Assembly (NCBI GenBank): GCA_947652325.1 | Contig: CANTCQ010000003.1 | Coordinates: 64,890-128,889, forward strand | Length of the DNA: 64,000 nt | Origin: an uncultured Mycoplasmatota bacterium | GTDB lineage: Bacteria > Bacillota_I > Bacilli_A > RF39 > UBA660 | Direction: 5' to 3' | Part shown: positions 4,738 through 42,123 of the stretch, in pieces | Position numbering within the stretch: the first letter of the stretch is position 1 | How the letters are laid out: each line of letters starts with the position of its first letter | Position numbers and translations under genes: made by a program | The notes under the pieces: generated by a model | What the model saw: the letters and a program-made list of their open reading frames with translations, nothing else | The model's database searches: none | Told to the model about the DNA's origin: nothing

Positions 4738-6567
4738 ATGAGTAAAATTATAGGTATCGATTTAGGTACAACCAATTCATGTGTAGCATTTTTAGAAGGA
4801 GGAAAACCAGTTGTAATTGCCAACAAAGAGGGAAATAGAACGACTCCAAGTGTTGTGGCATACACCGATAAGGGGGAAATACTAGTTGGTGAAAATGCCA
4901 AAAGACAAGCTGTAACCAATAAAAATACAGTATCATCTGCCAAAAGAAAAATGGGAACAAGTGAAACATTTGATATTGATGGAAAAAAATATACACCGCA
5001 ACAAATTAGTGCTCAAGTTTTAATGAAATTAAAAGCAGATGCAGAAAGTTTTTTAGGAGAAACGGTAACAAAAGCCGTTATTACGGTTCCTGCTTATTTT
5101 AATGATGCAGAACGTCAAGCTACAAAAGATGCAGGAAAAATAGCAGGACTTGAAGTAGAACGTATTGTAAACGAGCCGACTGCAGCAGCTCTTGCTTATG
5201 GACTAGATAAACAAGATAAATTACAAACGATTTTAGTTTATGATTTAGGTGGAGGTACATTTGATGTTTCCATACTAGAACTTGGAGATGGAATTTTTGA
5301 AGTAAAATCAACAAGCGGAAACAATCGTTTAGGTGGTGATGACTTCGATAATCGTATAATGGATTATTTAGTAGAAGAATTTAAAAAGATGGAAGATATT
5401 GATTTATCAAAAGATAAAATGGCTATGCAAAGACTTAAAGATGCTGCTGAAAAAGCCAAGAAAGATTTATCCGGAATGGCTTCTACCCAAATCAATTTAC
5501 CATTTATTTCTCAAAAAGAAAGTGGACCTGTTCATTTGGATATCAATTTAACCAAAGCCAAATTTGAAGATTTATGTCGCGATTTATTCGATTCTACTCT
5601 TGAGCCAGTTCGTAAAGCGTTAAAAGATGCGAAATTGGATAAGAATAAAATTGACCAAGTTATTTTGGTTGGAGGTTCAACACGTATTCCATATATTCAA
5701 GAATTAGTAGAACGTGAACTTGGAAAGGCTCCAAATAAGGGAGTAAATCCAGATGAAGTCGTAGCAATGGGTGCTGCTATTCAAGGAGGAGTATTATCAG
5801 GGGAAGTAGAAGATTTAGTTCTTTTAGATGTAACACCACTTTCTCTAGGAATTGAAACACTTGGAGGCGTAATGACACCACTAATTCCTAGAAATACAAC
5901 GATACCAACTTCAAAATCACAAGTATTTTCAACTGCTGCCGATAATCAACCAGCTGTAGATATTCATGTATTACAAGGAGAACGTCAAATGGCTGCGGAT
6001 AACAAAACACTTGGCAACTTCCAACTTACCAATATTCCACCAGCACCTCGTGGAGTTCCTCAAATTGAAGTTAAATTTGATATTGATGCCAATGGTATTG
6101 TTAATGTTACTGCAAAAGATTTAGGAACAAATAAAGAACAAAAAATAACCATTCAGTCTTCTACAGGACTTTCTGATGAAGACATTGAACGTATGGTACG
6201 TGAAGCAGAAGAAAACAAAGAAGCAGATGAAAAACGTAAAGAAGAAGTAGAAGTACGAAATAATGCTGATTCTATGATTTTCCAAACAGAAAAAGCTATC
6301 AAAGATTTAGGAGACAAAGTAGATTCTAAAGATAAAAGTGATGCGGAAGAAAAAATAAAGGAATTAAAAGAAGCACTAGGAAAAGAAGATACAGAAGATA
6401 TTAAAAAGAAAACCGAAAGTTTACAAGAAGTAGCCATGAAATTAGCAACTAAAGTTTACGAAGAAGCTGCAAAAGAAAATCAAACTGCAACTGATGCAAA
6501 TAACAATGAAACATCTGAAACTAAAAAAGAGGACAATGTAGAAGAAGCAAATTACGAAGAAAAATAA
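4738..6567 (+). CDS. dnaK: molecular chaperone DnaK (Hsp70)
   Basis: [18 protein letters not shown] and [11 protein letters not shown] motifs. The start is set at the MSKIIGID Met, which has an SD (aggaaagagga). The upstream Met at 4708 is judged a spurious extension. Confidence 0.97.
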
Positions 6568-6613
6568 AGAAAGTTCTAGGAAACTAGAGCTTTTCTAAAA
6601 TTAAGGAGAAAGA

Positions 6614-8398
6614 ATGGAAAAAATAAAAAAAAGAAGTGAGATTCGATGCGAAGACAAATGGGACAGAACGCTTCTTGTAAAAGATGAAGAAGATTATAAA
6701 AAGAAAAAAGAAGAAACGCAAAAGTTTTTACAAAAAATCGTAAGTTTGAAAGGTCATCTTTTAGATACCGCCCAAAATTTACTTACTTATTGTGAGACTT
6801 CTACCAAACTTGAAAAATTGCTTTTAGATATATATGTTTGGAGTAACCTTTATAAATGGGAAGATTTAAATGATGCACTAGCAAATAAATTTTCTTTAGA
6901 AGCAGAAGAATTGAATCATAAAATAACAGAAGCAACTTCTTTTGTAATTCCTGAAATTTTAAAAGGAAATTTAGAACAAATTAAAAATTTTCAAAAAGAA
7001 GAACCCAAGTTACAAGAATTTACTTTCACATTTGAGAGCATTTTTCAAGACAAAGAACATATATTAAATGAAGAGTCTGAGAAATTAATTAGTCAACTTA
7101 CCCGTTCTTATGGAAAATCAAAAGATACGCATGAAATACTAAATGATGCAGAGGGAGATTTAGGCACTGTAAAAATAAAAGGAGAAGATATTCAACTTAC
7201 ACAAAGTAATTACATTTCTTTATTAAAAAATAAAGACCAAAAAACACGCAAAAATGTTTTTAAAACCTATTATCAATTTTATAAGAATCATAAAAATACT
7301 ATAGCCTCTTTATATAACAGTAATGTTTTAGAAGATAATGCCCTTGCTCGTGTTCGAAAGTTTGAAAGTAGTTTAAAAATGGCACTTCATCATGAAAATA
7401 TTGCGGAGGTTGTCTATGAAAATTTACTTTCTTCTGTTCATAAAAATAAAAAAATGATATTTGAATTTCAAAAAATACGTAAAAAATTATTAGGAATAAA
7501 AGAGTATCATATTTACGACAATTATGTAGATTTAGAACTAGAGGAGGAACAAAAATACCCAATTGAAAAATGCAAAAATATTTTAAGAGAAGCTTTAAAA
7601 CCTCTTGGAGAAGATTATTTAAAAAAGTTAGAATTTATGTTTACGAGTTCTTATATAGATTATTATCCAAATAAAGGGAAACGAAGTGGCGCTTTTCAGT
7701 GGCACCGATACGTTTGTCTAAATCATATCAATACATTTGAATCTTTAGAAACAATGGCTCATGAACTTGGACATGCAATGAATACCTTGTATACAGAAGA
7801 AAATCAACCCTTTCATTATCAAAATAATCCCATTTTTTTAGCAGAAATTGCAAGTACTTTAAATGAAGTCTTGTTAAATGAATATTTATATAAAAATGCC
7901 AAAACAAAAGAAGAGCAAGTAAAAGTTTTAACTGATTTTTTATCACGCATTCAGGCAACTATTTATCGCCAAACAATGTTTGCGGAATTTGAATATTTGA
8001 TGCATAAAAAAATAGAAGAAGGTATTTCCTTAACAGAAGAATATATGTCCAATGCATACTATAAATTAGTAGAAGAATATTTTGATAAAGAAGTGATACT
8101 AGATGAGGAAATTAAATATGAATGGATGCGTATTCCCCATTTTTATACCTCTTTTTACGTTTACAAATATGCTATTGGTCTTATTTGTGCTTTAATTTTT
8201 GCAAAAAGAATAATAAATGGTGAAGAAAACGCTATTAAAAATTATCTTTCATTTTTAGCAAGTGGAACAAGCGCTTATCCGTTAGAAATACTAAAAAAAG
8301 CCAATATTGATTTAACCAATATATATGTTTTTGAAGAAGCTTTCTCTTTAATTGATGAAAAAATTACAAAATTGAAAGAAGTGATGCAAAATGAATAA
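6614..8398 (+). CDS. pepF: oligoendopeptidase F-like M3 metallopeptidase
   Basis: 594 aa with the HELGHAM zinc motif and a downstream E (LAEIAS). Length and layout are typical of M3B PepF. Confidence 0.85.
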
Positions 8399-16633: not shown

Positions 16634-16649
16634 AGTTTATTCCATACTA
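16621..16649 (+). promoter_or_regulatory. forespore-type (sigmaG/F-like) promoter candidate
   Basis: GCATA-N17-CATACTA. The -10 box ends 20 nt before the ATG at 16670, and the -35 box lies in the last codons of recD2. Confidence 0.5.
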
Positions 16650-16669
16650 GGAATAAGGAAGTGATTTTT

Positions 16670-16825
16670 ATGAAAAAAATGATGGTCGCAACAACAGTAG
16701 GAATGGCTTGTGGAGCAGGTCTTGCTGCTTACGTATTAACAAACAAAAACACAAAGAAAAATGCAGATAAACTATTAAATACAATGATGGATGAAGCGAA
16801 TCACATGATTAAAGCAAAAAATTAG
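16670..16825 (+). CDS. small YtxH-like membrane protein (51 aa)
   Basis: Not in the ORF track because it is under 60 aa. My translation is MKKMMVATTVGMACGAGLAAYVLTNKNTKKNADKLLNTMMDEANHMIKAKN. It has an SD (aaggaag) and a terminator follows. Confidence 0.55.
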   Translation: MKKMMVATTVGMACGAGLAAYVLTNKNTKKNADKLLNTMMDEANHMIKAKN

Positions 16826-16848
16826 AAGAGTAATATCTTCTTTTTTTT
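16824..16848 (+). terminator. rho-independent terminator
   Basis: agaaga-gtaata-tcttct stem-loop followed by T7. Confidence 0.7.
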
Positions 16849-16876
16849 ATATGAGTAATAAGATAGTAAAAAAGTC

Positions 16877-16905
16877 TTGACAAATGCTCGGGGGGGGGGT
16901 ATATT
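16877..16905 (+). promoter_or_regulatory. sigmaA-type promoter whose 17-nt spacer contains a G10 tract
   Basis: TTGACA at 16877-16882, spacer aatgctcGGGGGGGGGG, TATATT at 16900-16905. Confidence 0.7.
16890..16899 (+). repeat. G10 homopolymer (candidate slipped-strand phase-variation tract)
   Basis: Ten consecutive G between the -35 and -10 hexamers. Confidence 0.95.
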
Positions 16906-16936
16906 AATAGGAAAATTCATAGAAAAGGGGATGAAC

Positions 16937-17869
16937 ATGTTAAATTCTAAAGAAGAAAGGGAAATAAATAAAATATTGGAAAGTTCAGAATTAACAAGAA
17001 ATTTATCTTTTGCTGTACAAAAAGAAGAAATAGTAAACAAGTTTCCAAAATCGTTTTTTTCAGAAGAAAATCAGTCCTTATTTGAGTATGTATTTGATTT
17101 GTTACATAGATTGCCATTTGGGATTATAAAATCGAGATATGTTGAAGAATGTTTAATGTATTTATATGAGCAAGAAAATCCCTATTTAGTAAGCCCAACA
17201 AAAGAATTGTATCCTATAGTTGCCAAAAAACACGCAAAAAAGCAAGAACATATTGAAAGAGGTTTGAGATATCACATAACAAAAAATTTTCTAAATATCA
17301 ATCAAGATATTAGAGAAGAATATTTTACAACACCTGAAGGTAAAATTCCAACCAATTTCTTATTTCTTTCTAATTTAGTAGAATATATAAGGGTGCATTA
17401 CTACAGTTATTCCACACCTACCTTTACAAAAGAGCAAATAGAATATTTTATTGCAAATATGAAAAAAGAAGACAATGCAATGTATATTATAGAACAAGCC
17501 CATCGAAAAAAAGAACTCGAAAAGTTTTTGCAGGAGTACCTAGGACTTTTTCAATATCAAGCAGCAGATTCTCACTTTTTACTTACTGAGTTAATTTTGC
17601 ATTATATAGATAATCCTGTACCTTTATTATTAGACTTTTATAGAGACGAATTTATTTGTAACAGGTGGAAAATTTATACTAAACAAGATTTTCTTCAAAA
17701 AATGGCTTGTATAACTCTTTCTATTGGAAAGGCTTATCCACATATAAACCCAGAAATATACAAAGTAATTTTTGGAGATTGTGAACTTCATAGAGGAACT
17801 GCTGAGTTTATAAGAACAGTTAGTAAATACTTAAAAGAGCAAGAGTTTGTAAGAAGTTTAAAAAGATAG
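16937..17869 (+). CDS. orphan Spo0A C-terminal (DNA-binding) domain protein, two tandem Spo0A_C-like domains, no receiver domain
   Basis: LYPIVAKKHAKKQEHIERGLRYHITKNF ... IPTNFLFLSNLVEYI parallels Spo0A LYPDIAKK..ttasrVERAIRHAIevaW...PTNSEFIamvadkL. A second, weaker copy ends ...GTAEFIRTVSKYL. The start is set at the Met after the SD aaaagggg. The track start at 16877 runs through the promoter. Confidence 0.65.
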   Translation: MLNSKEEREINKILESSELTRNLSFAVQKEEIVNKFPKSFFSEENQSLFEYVFDLLHRLPFGIIKSRYVEECLMYLYEQENPYLVSPTKELYPIVAKKHAKKQEHIERGLRYHITKNFLNINQDIREEYFTTPEGKIPTNFLFLSNLVEYIRVHYYSYSTPTFTKEQIEYFIANMKKEDNAMYIIEQAHRKKELEKFLQEYLGLFQYQAADSHFLLTELILHYIDNPVPLLLDFYRDEFICNRWKIYTKQDFLQKMACITLSIGKAYPHINPEIYKVIFGDCELHRGTAEFIRTVSKYLKEQEFVRSLKR

Positions 17870-17880
17870 GAAAAATTTTT

Positions 17881-17907
17881 GAAGCAACCTGCTTCTTTTT
17901 CTTTTTT
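17881..17907 (+). terminator. rho-independent terminator
   Basis: gaagca-acc-tgcttc stem-loop followed by tttttctttttt. Confidence 0.8.
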
Positions 17908-17940
17908 AAAAATGATATAATACCAAAAGGTGGGTAGTAA

Positions 17941-39840: not shown

Positions 39841-42123
39841 ATGTATAAAAAAATTTATGTTGATAAAATAAACGATTTACCAGAGCCATACGATGCAAAA
39901 CTAAATAAGGAAGCATTTGAAAAAATGGCGAATGGCGATACTTCGATTAAAAAGGATATTATTGACCATAATTTAAGATTTGTTTTAAATCAAATTTATA
40001 ACTATTTTTCCAAAACTTCTTATGAAACAAATGAATTATTTAGTATAGGAACAATAGGATTAATAAAAGCTATAGATTCATTTGATATTAAAAAAGGAAA
40101 TGCATTTGCCACGTATGCCACGAGATGTATTCATAATGAAATTTTAATGTTTATGCGTCACGAGAAAAAATTTTCAAAAGAAGAAAGTATGAATAAATCT
40201 TTATATCATGATAAAGATGGAAAGGAAATAATTTTAGAAGAAATTATTGCTGATAATAATATAAATATTCTAGATGATTATATCGTAACCGAAGAAATTG
40301 AAAATAACGAAAAATTAATAGAAAAAATGAAAGAAATTTTAAATTTTTTAAAAGAACGTGATAAACAAATAATTTTATATTTATACGGATTGACAGATGG
40401 AAAAAAACATTCTCAATCTGAAGCAGCAAATAAATTTAATTTGTCGCAAAGCATAATTTCTCGAATCGAAAGAAAGTGTTTGAAACTTTTAAAAGAAATA
40501 TTATATAATGAAATGAACACCACAATAGAATATAGCGATTTTGATACGACTGAAATAGATCCATTATTAAATTCAAAATTATTTATAGAATTTATAAATT
40601 TATTTCCAGAAGAAATGCACAAATCGTATTGTATTGAAAAAGGGATAAGAATAAAAAATAAAAAAGTATCGAAAATTATTAATTCTAAACTAACTAATAA
40701 TAGTAAACAAGAGATAAAAACTATGGAATCTCATTTAAAATTTATGATAGATGAATATTTTAATGGAATAAAACAAAACAAAAATAAAAAAGAAATTTTG
40801 GAAAGTTTAATATCTAAAATGAAAAATAGAAGTTTATTATTTCGTTTTTCTGAATATTCAAATATGGAAATAATATATGCTTTAAGATATTTAACAGAGG
40901 AAGAGCAGCAAATTATTATAAAAAGACATGGACAGAATTTAAACAATTTTTTCTCATTTTCAAAAAAGAAATATCAAAAACAATTTAGAAAATATACACT
41001 TGCAGTACAAAACTTAGAAATAATTCTTTTCTTAATAAAAAATAAAGAACGTTTTAAAAAAGATTTAGAAATATCCGAAGATAAAAGTCTTATCGATAAT
41101 CTAAAATATTTAACAATAAAAGAAAAAAACATTTTGTGTTCGGGGGGGGGGTATACTAAGGAAACAAAAACATATTATGACATACTTGCAATCATAAAAA
41201 GAAAAAAAGAAGGAAAAATATGTAAAGTATCTCCTTTATTTCAAAAATATGCAAAAGAAGAAATAAGAATGGCATTACCTATACTAAGTAAAGAAGAGCT
41301 AATACTATTTCTAAGTCGTCATGGAGAGAATTTAGAACAAAAAAATCCTTGGCCAACAGATCAAAAATCTAGTTATTATTATAGGCGTTATGCAAAAATT
41401 GTAAAAAAAATAATAAAGCATATTGAAAGTAAAAAAGAAGTATTAGTTACTGAATTTTGTCTAAAATATGGATTTAATTCAGTGAGCGAAGCAAAGGAAA
41501 CCATAGCCTTATTAGCAAAATCGGAACAAGATATTATTTACCTAAAATGGGGTGAAGACTTAAATTTTGTAAAATCATTTCCAAGAAATAATATAAAAAA
41601 ATCATTTGCTGAGTATTCATGGGAGTATGAAGAAGCCATTTATCATTTAAAACAAATACAAAAAAAACAAAATGCAAATAGAAAAGAAGAGCAAATAGTC
41701 ATTATTGACCAACCATCAAAAAAAATAAAAAATGATTTACTAGAAGAAAAACTATCTTTAAAAAAAGCTGAAATCTTTAATAATTTATTTGAAGTATATC
41801 AAACACTTATTGATAAAAAAATCATAATAGAACTAATTAATAAAACAGTAGTAAATTTACGCATTTCAAATAATGAATATTTTCATATCATCGAAAATGA
41901 AATATTTATGAATTTAGCAAATCAATACAAAGAAAATATAGATAATGAAAAAGGACACATGCTAATAAACCACATAAAAGAAATGTTTTTGATAAAGATT
42001 AAAGCAAAAAATCCCCTATATACAAAAGAAAAAATTGCATATGCGATAGAAGAAGTTTTTAAAAATTATACGGGAACGAGTAATTTTGAATTCGAAATAA
42101 CTCTTTATTTAAAAAATAGGTAA
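39841..42123 (+). CDS. sigmaE/sigmaK-like sporulation-type sigma-70 factor fused to a ~530-aa C-terminal extension of degenerate region-4-like repeats
   Basis: Residues 1-225 align by eye with B. subtilis SigE/SigK: LPEPYD, MANGD, HNLRFV, SIGTIGLIKAIDSF, ATYATRCIHNEILMFMR, and region 4 LKERDKQIILYLYGL...SQSIISRIERKCL. Four further modules follow (ALRYLTEEEQQIIIKRHGQNL, NLKYLTIKEKNILCSGGGY, ALPILSKEELILFLSRHGENL, ALLAKSEQDIIYLKWGEDL). Confidence 0.8.
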   Translation: MYKKIYVDKINDLPEPYDAKLNKEAFEKMANGDTSIKKDIIDHNLRFVLNQIYNYFSKTSYETNELFSIGTIGLIKAIDSFDIKKGNAFATYATRCIHNEILMFMRHEKKFSKEESMNKSLYHDKDGKEIILEEIIADNNINILDDYIVTEEIENNEKLIEKMKEILNFLKERDKQIILYLYGLTDGKKHSQSEAANKFNLSQSIISRIERKCLKLLKEILYNEMNTTIEYSDFDTTEIDPLLNSKLFIEFINLFPEEMHKSYCIEKGIRIKNKKVSKIINSKLTNNSKQEIKTMESHLKFMIDEYFNGIKQNKNKKEILESLISKMKNRSLLFRFSEYSNMEIIYALRYLTEEEQQIIIKRHGQNLNNFFSFSKKKYQKQFRKYTLAVQNLEIILFLIKNKERFKKDLEISEDKSLIDNLKYLTIKEKNILCSGGGYTKETKTYYDILAIIKRKKEGKICKVSPLFQKYAKEEIRMALPILSKEELILFLSRHGENLEQKNPWPTDQKSSYYYRRYAKIVKKIIKHIESKKEVLVTEFCLKYGFNSVSEAKETIALLAKSEQDIIYLKWGEDLNFVKSFPRNNIKKSFAEYSWEYEEAIYHLKQIQKKQNANRKEEQIVIIDQPSKKIKNDLLEEKLSLKKAEIFNNLFEVYQTLIDKKIIIELINKTVVNLRISNNEYFHIIENEIFMNLANQYKENIDNEKGHMLINHIKEMFLIKIKAKNPLYTKEKIAYAIEEVFKNYTGTSNFEFEITLYLKNR
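41142..41151 (+). repeat. G10 homopolymer inside the sigma gene (codons S-G-G-G)
   Basis: tcGGGGGGGGGGtat. With G9 or G11 the frame reaches a stop within 16 or 3 codons respectively (my translation). Confidence 0.95.

Follow-up and report, generated by a model that had tools for sequence, protein, structure and literature searches.

What is the role of a Spo0A DNA-binding domain in a protein that carries no receiver domain? Entry into endospore formation depends universally on Spo0A, a switch whose activity is regarded as under the control of phosphorylation. The question is raised by a 310-residue open reading frame on the plus strand of a genome from an uncultured, low-GC gut member of the Bacilli, whose assembly comprises 1.27 Mb in 16 contigs (27.6% GC, about 90% complete); the 64-kb stretch of this genome that was analysed is called the window below. 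An earlier note, made from the DNA sequence alone, had described the product as two tandem Spo0A_C-like domains and had proposed that it could act as a stochastic, phosphorelay-independent switch on 0A-box-like targets, gated by a poly-G promoter. Our analysis suggests that the protein is probably a lineage-restricted accessory transcription regulator that arose by internal duplication. The features on which this reading draws are listed here, with positions numbered within the window:

16877-16905, plus strand: predicted sigma-A-type promoter, with -35 TTGACA at 16877-16882, a 17-nt spacer at 16883-16899 and -10 TATATT at 16900-16905 (consensus scan)
16890-16899, plus strand: G10 homopolymer, length-variable, at the 3' end of the promoter spacer (comparison of assemblies)
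16925-16930, plus strand: ribosome-binding site AAGGGG, 6 nt 5' of ATG 16937 (direct reading of the sequence)
16937-17869, plus strand: coding sequence of the receiver-less tandem Spo0A_C-like protein, stop included (identical protein on three independent metagenome contigs)
16937-17068, plus strand: N-terminal leader, residues 1-44, helical and family-specific (family alignment)
17069-17410, plus strand: domain 1, residues 45-158, an intact Spo0A_C DNA-binding domain by homology (Pfam, family profile)
17246-17287, plus strand: recognition helix of domain 1, HIERGLRYHITKNF, residues 104-117, with E107, R108 and R111 (aligned to VERAIRHAIEVAW of Spo0A in 1lq1/1fc3)
17411-17503, plus strand: acidic inter-domain linker, residues 159-189 (family alignment, charge table)
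17504-17854, plus strand: domain 2, residues 190-306 (profile match about 185-306), a predicted degenerate Spo0A_C fold that ends in a conserved long helix ...YLKEQEFVRSLK (AlphaFold2, Foldseek, hhalign, HMM of the C-terminal halves)
17881-17905, plus strand: predicted intrinsic terminator ahead of mutS, with a 6-bp stem GAAGCA/TGCTTC and a T run (terminator scan)

The open reading frame is intact and extends from ATG 16937 to the TAG at 17867-17869. The promoter scores 11 of 12 consensus matches at a spacer of 17 nt, and both hexamers are kept in the homologous loci of the metagenome contig L005 and the genomes G012 and G010 (the -35 element is TTGACA in L005 and in G012, and the -10 element is TATAGT and TATACT, respectively). 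An alternative in-frame ATG at 16931 directly adjoins the AAGGGG ribosome-binding site. Translation is likely to start at ATG 16937, because all homologues begin with ML(S/N) at the equivalent methionine and because this codon stands 6 nt from the ribosome-binding site. With a promoter and a terminator of its own, the gene appears to form a monocistronic unit. It is located between recD2 (690 bits to TIGR01448) and a gene for a 54-residue, YtxH-like membrane protein on one side, and mutS (1006 bits to TIGR01070) on the other. Contigs from a metatranscriptome run cover the body of the gene, a weak sign of transcription given that DNA carry-over is possible.

The N-terminal half of the protein can be assigned with standard methods. 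The Pfam family Spo0A_C (PF08769) matches residues 67-151 with 46 bits, where the gathering cut-off is 25 (E 5.8e-12), and the sole matches of the single sequence in the PDB are the Spo0A-C crystal structures 1fc3 and 1lq1 (E 2e-3). A profile of 14 family sequences matches the same structures with an E-value of 1.6e-9 over residues 45-149; this match covers residues 3-111 of the 120-residue crystallised fragment, that is, the whole crystallised domain. The segments LYPIVAKK, IERGLRYHI and PTNFLFLSNLVEYI, which the earlier note had singled out as Spo0A-like, do align with the helix-turn-helix, the recognition helix and the KPTNSEFIA helix of Spo0A. In the recognition helix, HIERGLRYHI of domain 1 stands against VERAIRHAI of Spo0A, and the E-R-x-x-R motif is kept; no family member departs from E107 or R111, and R108 is found in 11 of 14, the other three having glycine or histidine. 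We take E213, R214 and R217 to be the base-contacting residues in 1LQ1, contacts that Zhao and colleagues reportedly described in their 2002 paper on that structure. The DNA specificity of domain 1 may differ from the 0A box, in view of the variation at R108 and of an identity to Spo0A-C of about 30%. Its fold rests on homology, because a full-length AlphaFold2 model built with four sequences has low confidence in this region (pLDDT below 50). By these matches, domain 1 is a bona fide Spo0A_C domain that keeps the E-R-x-x-R motif, and it looks able to read DNA.

The C-terminal half is far more divergent. BLASTP of the N-terminal half against the C-terminal half shows no similarity (E 3.9), HMMER with the Pfam model finds no Spo0A_C domain in 16 C-terminal halves at E-values up to 10, and a comparison of these halves with PDB sequences returns nothing relevant. 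Structure and profile-profile methods were needed for the second domain, because BLASTP and HMMER are blind to it. AlphaFold2 models residues 159-310 alone, from a 16-sequence alignment, with a pLDDT of 88.1 and a pTM of 0.80. When the model of domain 2 is compared with 350,542 PDB chains using Foldseek, the top seven matches are exactly the seven chains of 1lq1 and 1fc3 (probability 0.94-1.00, TMt 0.68-0.73, r.m.s.d. 3.0-3.5 A over 113-121 columns, 15-17% identity), and the eighth match falls to a probability of 0.12 and a TM-score of 0.25. The Foldseek E-values are 0.13-0.9, and support comes instead from the probability, the TM-score and the exclusivity of the matches. A profile of the C-terminal halves also aligns with a 127-domain Spo0A_C alignment in hhalign (95% probability, E 3.1e-8, 112 columns), and an HMM built from the C-terminal halves alone matches, in register, the genuine Spo0A_C domains of many orphan proteins, one example in the 117-sequence set being P0038 (E 3e-7). 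Clean column slices were used for the alignment of the C-terminal halves, and the fragment P0008, which carries the last helix of domain 1, was left out of it. The weaker second copy, which the earlier note had pointed out, is thus recovered by three independent approaches. Two checks suggested in the same note divide between the domains: the Pfam search detects domain 1 and misses domain 2, and structure prediction returns Spo0A-C for domain 2 and a poor model for domain 1.

Although the fold appears to be retained, the residues that read DNA are not. At the positions of the E-R-x-x-R motif, domain 2 has lysine or methionine, a variable residue, and isoleucine, serine or threonine, and the KPTNSEFI motif has become HRGxxxYI; overall identity to Spo0A-C is about 16%. 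Domain 2 is unlikely to read DNA, because both the E-R-x-x-R and the KPTN motifs are lost. The predicted model and the profiles agree that it is a homologous domain in which the Spo0A-C fold is kept and the DNA-reading motif is gone. Net charge shows no consistent difference between domains 1 and 2 across the family. When the profiles of the two halves are aligned with each other in hhalign, they are collinear over 134 columns (P 0.0045), and this stretch includes a weak alignment of the leader with the inter-domain linker. Such collinearity suggests the duplication of a whole module of about 150 residues, consisting of a short helical leader and a Spo0A_C domain.

A receiver domain is absent, as judged by the lack of any Response_reg match in Pfam. 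The Spo0A equivalog model TIGR02875 stays at 26.2 bits, below its cut-off of 200, and the match is limited to model positions 143-257, its C-terminal part. Pfam, TIGR02875, Foldseek and hhalign therefore agree with the initial description of two tandem Spo0A_C-like domains without a receiver. The search for a canonical spo0A that had been advised was successful: contig C10 of the same genome encodes a 254-residue Spo0A with a receiver domain and the sequence VERAIRHAIEVSW...KPTNSEFIA, and the same model gives it 244 bits, above the cut-off of 200. The 310-residue protein is distinct from the Spo0A of its host, which is encoded elsewhere in the genome.

The isolated DNA-binding domain of Spo0A binds its legitimate targets unphosphorylated, the inhibitory contacts of the receiver being absent (PMC3485338), and it is therefore reasonable to infer that the present protein would be active whenever it is made. 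A search for its likely targets was based on the 0A box TGTCGAA (PMC3485338). The heptamer is not enriched, with 2 occurrences in the window against 3.8 expected and 72 in the genome against 114 expected, and the regions upstream of this gene and of spo0A contain no 0A box, even when one mismatch is allowed. These counts are uninformative about targets and do not discriminate between the readings discussed here. The constitutive and stochastic action on 0A-box-like sites that the earlier note envisaged is a plausible prediction.

The family defined by the two-domain architecture is small. Searching 5.8 billion proteins through a word index gave three relatives, and an exhaustive phmmer search of 1.84 billion cluster representatives found about six full-length clusters and some fragments. 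The gene is present in four of the 31 species of the genus (G000, G010, G012 and G030), the other matches in the genus being canonical Spo0A. A pattern search of genome contigs based on a six-sequence alignment recovered G012, G010 and one weak match in Clostridiales only; an earlier pattern set had given no match on these contigs. The sequence occurs in sequencing runs of mouse and rat gut metagenomes.

The reading that we favour, with moderate confidence, connects these observations as follows. The protein would bind DNA whenever it is made, since it has neither an inhibitory nor a dimerising receiver. Domain 1 would read Spo0A-box-like sites (TGTCGAA-like), the likely targets, and domain 2 would probably serve as a non-reading partner, which could imitate the second protomer within a Spo0A dimer or offer a contact surface to RNA polymerase or to Spo0A itself. 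Slipped-strand changes in the G tract would alter the length of the promoter spacer, hence the strength of the promoter and the amount of protein in each cell lineage. The outcome would be a phosphorylation-independent input into Spo0A-type targets that is heritable yet reversible. The sequence is compatible both with an activator and with an antagonist at Spo0A-controlled promoters.

An antagonist would have the same architecture as in the favoured reading and differ from it only in the sign of the effect. It would compete with Spo0A, either by occupying 0A boxes or by pairing with the Spo0A effector domain through domain 2, in both cases without activating transcription, so that in the ON state it would weaken or postpone sporulation along with other programmes that depend on Spo0A. 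Genetic work in Bacillus subtilis implicates two regions of Spo0A in activating RNA polymerase, namely the helix after the recognition helix and the last helix. Our alignments show these regions poorly conserved in domain 1, although conservation of an activation surface cannot be judged at 30% identity. The DNA-reading motif is confined to domain 1, the gene co-exists with a canonical Spo0A, and its accessory, patchy distribution in 4 of 31 species is as expected of a modulator rather than of a core factor. Against this, nothing detectable in domain 2 predicts that it binds Spo0A, and we consider a competitive antagonist unlikely.

The promoter spacer consists of AATGCTC followed by G10, 17 nt in all. 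A G9 tract, and hence a 16-nt spacer, is found in L003 and L004, two Logan contigs from other samples that encode an identical protein within identical flanks; these come from two runs with neighbouring accession numbers, and the tract is G10 everywhere else, including the tract-spanning contigs of seven further runs (X1, X2, X4, X6, X8, X10 and X11). Contigs break at the tract in the runs X3, X5 and X7, which fits heterogeneity and equally fits low coverage, and several low-coverage assemblies end at or near it. The poly-G promoter of the earlier note is thus confirmed as a G10 tract that fills the 3' part of the spacer of a near-consensus promoter, with G9 in two assemblies. The syntenic promoter of G012 has GGG at this place and that of L005 has no tract. 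Across the genome there are 14 runs of G or C of at least 8 nt, against 0.29 expected at 27.6% GC; the tract of this gene is one of them and has counterparts across the genome, where other G10 tracts likewise adjoin -10-like hexamers. The length-variable G tract could turn the gene up or down. The difference between G9 and G10 may also be a fixed, strain-level one, because the lengths are known from assembled contigs alone.

A bolder interpretation of the tract, which we regard as doubtful, makes the protein a phase-variable surrogate or antagonist of Spo0A that is independent of the phosphorelay. Slippage in the G tract would then, stochastically, commit sub-lineages of this small-genome gut bacterium to a Spo0A-type developmental programme such as sporulation or colonisation, or exclude them from it. 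The promoter would be one of about a dozen poly-G 'phasevarion' promoters in the genome, and domain 2 would be a covalent pseudo-protomer that replaces dimerisation driven by phosphorylation.

Receiver-less Spo0A_C proteins are by no means restricted to this family. The receiver domain is missing in 106 of 117 distant representative matches, and 13 of these 117 representatives have two to five recognisable tandem copies of the domain (two in P0013 and P0022, four in P0012 and at least five in P0032, for instance); the single-domain receiver-less proteins have a median length of 163 residues. Two PHROG phage families (phrog_24603, for example) and two BFVD phage proteins (such as A0A8S5U7U3) share the Spo0A_C domain, and PF08769 has been reported as enriched on the mobile elements of gut Firmicutes (PMC6907783). 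In the literature that we searched on orphan, truncated and paralogous Spo0A_C proteins there is no experimental study of receiver-less ones; it reports full-length spo0A paralogues and the enrichment of PF08769 on mobile elements only (PMC6907783). Judged from these sequences, the receiver-less and tandem architecture is not rare; gut Firmicutes, their mobile elements and phages commonly have it. What appears to be new here is a narrowly distributed family that combines an intact domain, a degenerate one, a leader, linker and tail peculiar to the family, and a homopolymer-bearing promoter.

The wider occurrence of the domain could point to another origin for the gene, as a domesticated regulator from a mobile element or phage, which would control accessory genes (surface or colonisation genes, for example) with a specificity diverged from the 0A box. 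In a tree of Spo0A_C domains, the N-terminal domains of the family form one clade (SH-aLRT 95) whose sister group (87) consists of the receiver-less proteins P0018, P0045, P0028 and P0035 and not of the genus's Spo0A, though the tree is based on 159 rows and 117 columns and many of its forks are unresolved. In these four proteins, too, one or two intact domains are followed by a C-terminal region that is degenerate. The location of the gene varies as well. There is one copy between recD2 and mutS in G000, one at the end of a contig, following recD2, in G012, and one upstream of mutS, with one gene in between, in G030; G010 has three tandem copies adjoining thrS and large surface proteins, and the metagenome contig L005 has two tandem copies ahead of a SigK/E-like sigma factor gene. 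Among the genus genomes with a readable upstream flank, at least six (G003, G005, G008, G017, G018 and G020) have no gene in the slot that separates the small membrane protein gene from mutS, and several others have unrelated genes there; in most members of the genus the slot is empty or otherwise filled. However, no integrase, repeats or phage genes flank the gene within the window, a search of 50,697 phage records yields a single weak match (29% identity), and the recognition-helix motif is that of Spo0A. PADLOC likewise gives no match and thus no sign of membership in a defence system. A mobile origin with diverged specificity seems to us quite improbable as an account of the protein.

Several measures indicate that the family is under selection. 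Full-length, intact open reading frames are found at nine loci in at least six genomes or metagenomes. In the closer pairs, dN/dS (Nei-Gojobori) lies between 0.19 and 0.31 in domain 1 and between 0.26 and 0.68 in domain 2, the value of 0.68 being that of the closest pair, and it is below 1 in both domains in all pairs. These values argue that both domains are constrained, domain 2 less so, and that the family evolves fast under purifying selection. The integrity of the reading frames and the dN/dS values lead us to reject a pseudogene. It is hardly credible that the protein is a non-functional relic or does not bind DNA, as a decaying duplicate or a pure protein-binding adaptor: the strong degeneracy of domain 2 and its dN/dS in the closest pair, the patchy distribution and the copy in G012, which stops about 13 residues early, would fit such a fate, but the core and motif residues are invariant, the promoter, ribosome-binding site and terminator are intact, and the identical protein recurs in three independent samples, in addition to the constraint and the full-length frames just described.

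The locus is a compact test case, in which an intact and a degenerate effector domain occur in one chain, alongside a normal Spo0A, in a genome of 1.27 Mb, and in which the G tract is the sole variable feature of the gene's promoter. This combination offers a tractable route to the function of orphan Spo0A_C proteins, though the architecture itself is not rare. If the protein acts on Spo0A targets, inherited stochastic switching and horizontally moving genes could, besides signalling, bias developmental decisions in spore-formers of the gut. If it does not, the family would still document how the output domain of a response regulator is recycled into a new family of regulators, and how a DNA-binding domain may decay into a partner domain after internal duplication.

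Compared with known systems, the protein is closest to the C-terminal domain of Spo0A (1FC3, 1LQ1, PF08769). Domain 1 shares with it the helix-turn-helix, the E-R-x-x-R recognition helix and the PTN-containing last helix, and domain 2 shares the six-helix fold (TM-score about 0.7, in a predicted model) and homology at the level of profiles. Unlike Spo0A, the 310-residue protein has no receiver, and so would be free of phosphorylation control and of receiver-mediated dimerisation; it has two effector copies per chain, the second of which lacks the DNA-reading and KPTN motifs. The lack of a receiver is shared with the other receiver-less and tandem Spo0A_C proteins, some of which likewise fit two domains into about 310 residues. 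The clear tandem proteins, however, keep VER-x-IR in each copy, whereas here it is kept in the first copy only. The leader, the linker and the C-terminal YLKEQE helix are the family's own marks, and, unlike the wider Spo0A_C class, the family does not extend beyond about six clusters and a few species in a single genus.

The promoter resembles phase-variable promoters that have a homopolymer in the spacer, such as the poly-G of porA and the poly-C of opc in Neisseria meningitidis and the poly-A of vlp in Mycoplasma hyorhinis. Shared features are the position of the homopolymer between the -35 and -10 elements, the optimal 17-nt spacing at one tract length, and a one-base difference in length between otherwise identical assemblies. 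Those promoters control surface antigens, whereas the gene controlled here encodes a predicted cytoplasmic regulator; the host, moreover, is a low-GC, uncultured gut member of the Bacilli in which the variation is known from assemblies alone. Finally, the protein shares with the laboratory truncations of Spo0A to its DNA-binding domain (PMC3485338) a DNA-binding domain freed of its receiver, and these provide the precedent for activity as soon as the protein is made. The truncations are artificial single-domain fragments of Spo0A, whereas the proteins described here appear to form a natural and diverged family of two-domain paralogues.

The G10 tract in the spacer between the -35 and -10 elements of the promoter of the orphan gene, which encodes a receiver-less protein with two tandem Spo0A_C-like domains, belongs to a larger group of homopolymers in the host genome. 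This 1.27-Mb genome (27.6% GC) contains 14 G/C homopolymers of at least 8 nt, against 0.29 expected under an iid model, and in 11 of them the run is exactly G10. For most, the surrounding sequence is tc-G10-TATAxT, in which the tract directly abuts a -10-like hexamer, and TTGACA lies 4-7 nt upstream of several. Three of the tracts lie within the window or just upstream of it:

Window 16890-16899: G10 tract at the orphan promoter
Window about 41142-41151 (C3:106031-106040): second G/C tract within the window
C3:54884: G/C tract just upstream of the window

Genes downstream of the tracts include those for an ABC ATPase, a 749-aa repeat protein, a 550-aa coiled-coil/membrane protein, an HTH-metallophosphatase-like protein and a 284-aa protein of unknown function. 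Some of the tracts may lie inside open reading frames. Taken as a whole, they look like a genome-wide set of candidate poly-G contingency promoters.

Possible homopolymers also appear upstream of two orphan homologues elsewhere. In G030, another species of the genus, the contig end is a 48-nt poly-C run (L029, G030:C37, 4458-4505) when read on the homologue's sense strand. The run occupies the expected promoter position, about 41 nt before the ATG of the homologue; it may be an artefact of two-colour chemistry or of assembly at a homopolymer, or it may be a genuine long tract. In the homologous locus L006, low-complexity A/C-rich sequence precedes a tract remnant, as if reads had degraded across a G tract.

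The interval occupied by the orphan gene, from recD2 and a small ytxH-like gene to mutS (window 16634-17940), varies across the genus (loci L036-L061). At least six species have an empty interval (about 140 nt), whereas in others it contains the orphan gene, an unrelated gene of 243-254 aa or an ORF of 93 aa; in G030, a 251-aa unannotated protein is encoded between the orphan gene and mutS. At locus L027 of another species, G010 (G010:C39, 8223-11776), three tandem orphan copies adjoin genes for two large proteins, of 391 and 793 aa, that are secreted or anchored and have repeated modules of about 80 residues and C-terminal membrane anchors.

In G031, which belongs to the same family but to another genus, two full-length spo0A paralogues are adjacent (L030, G031:C31), each encoding 256 aa with both a receiver and a Spo0A_C domain:

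5711-6481: first spo0A paralogue
6596-7366: second spo0A paralogue

Of the two, the first matches the orphan-family profile somewhat better (56 bits versus 38 for the second). On the metagenome contig L005, a 229-aa SigK/SigE-like sigma factor (5690-6379) is encoded immediately downstream of two tandem orphan copies, an arrangement in which orphan Spo0A_C genes and divergent sporulation-type sigma factors may be functionally linked. This sigma factor scores well under the equivalog cut-offs, at 164 bits versus 252 for SigK.
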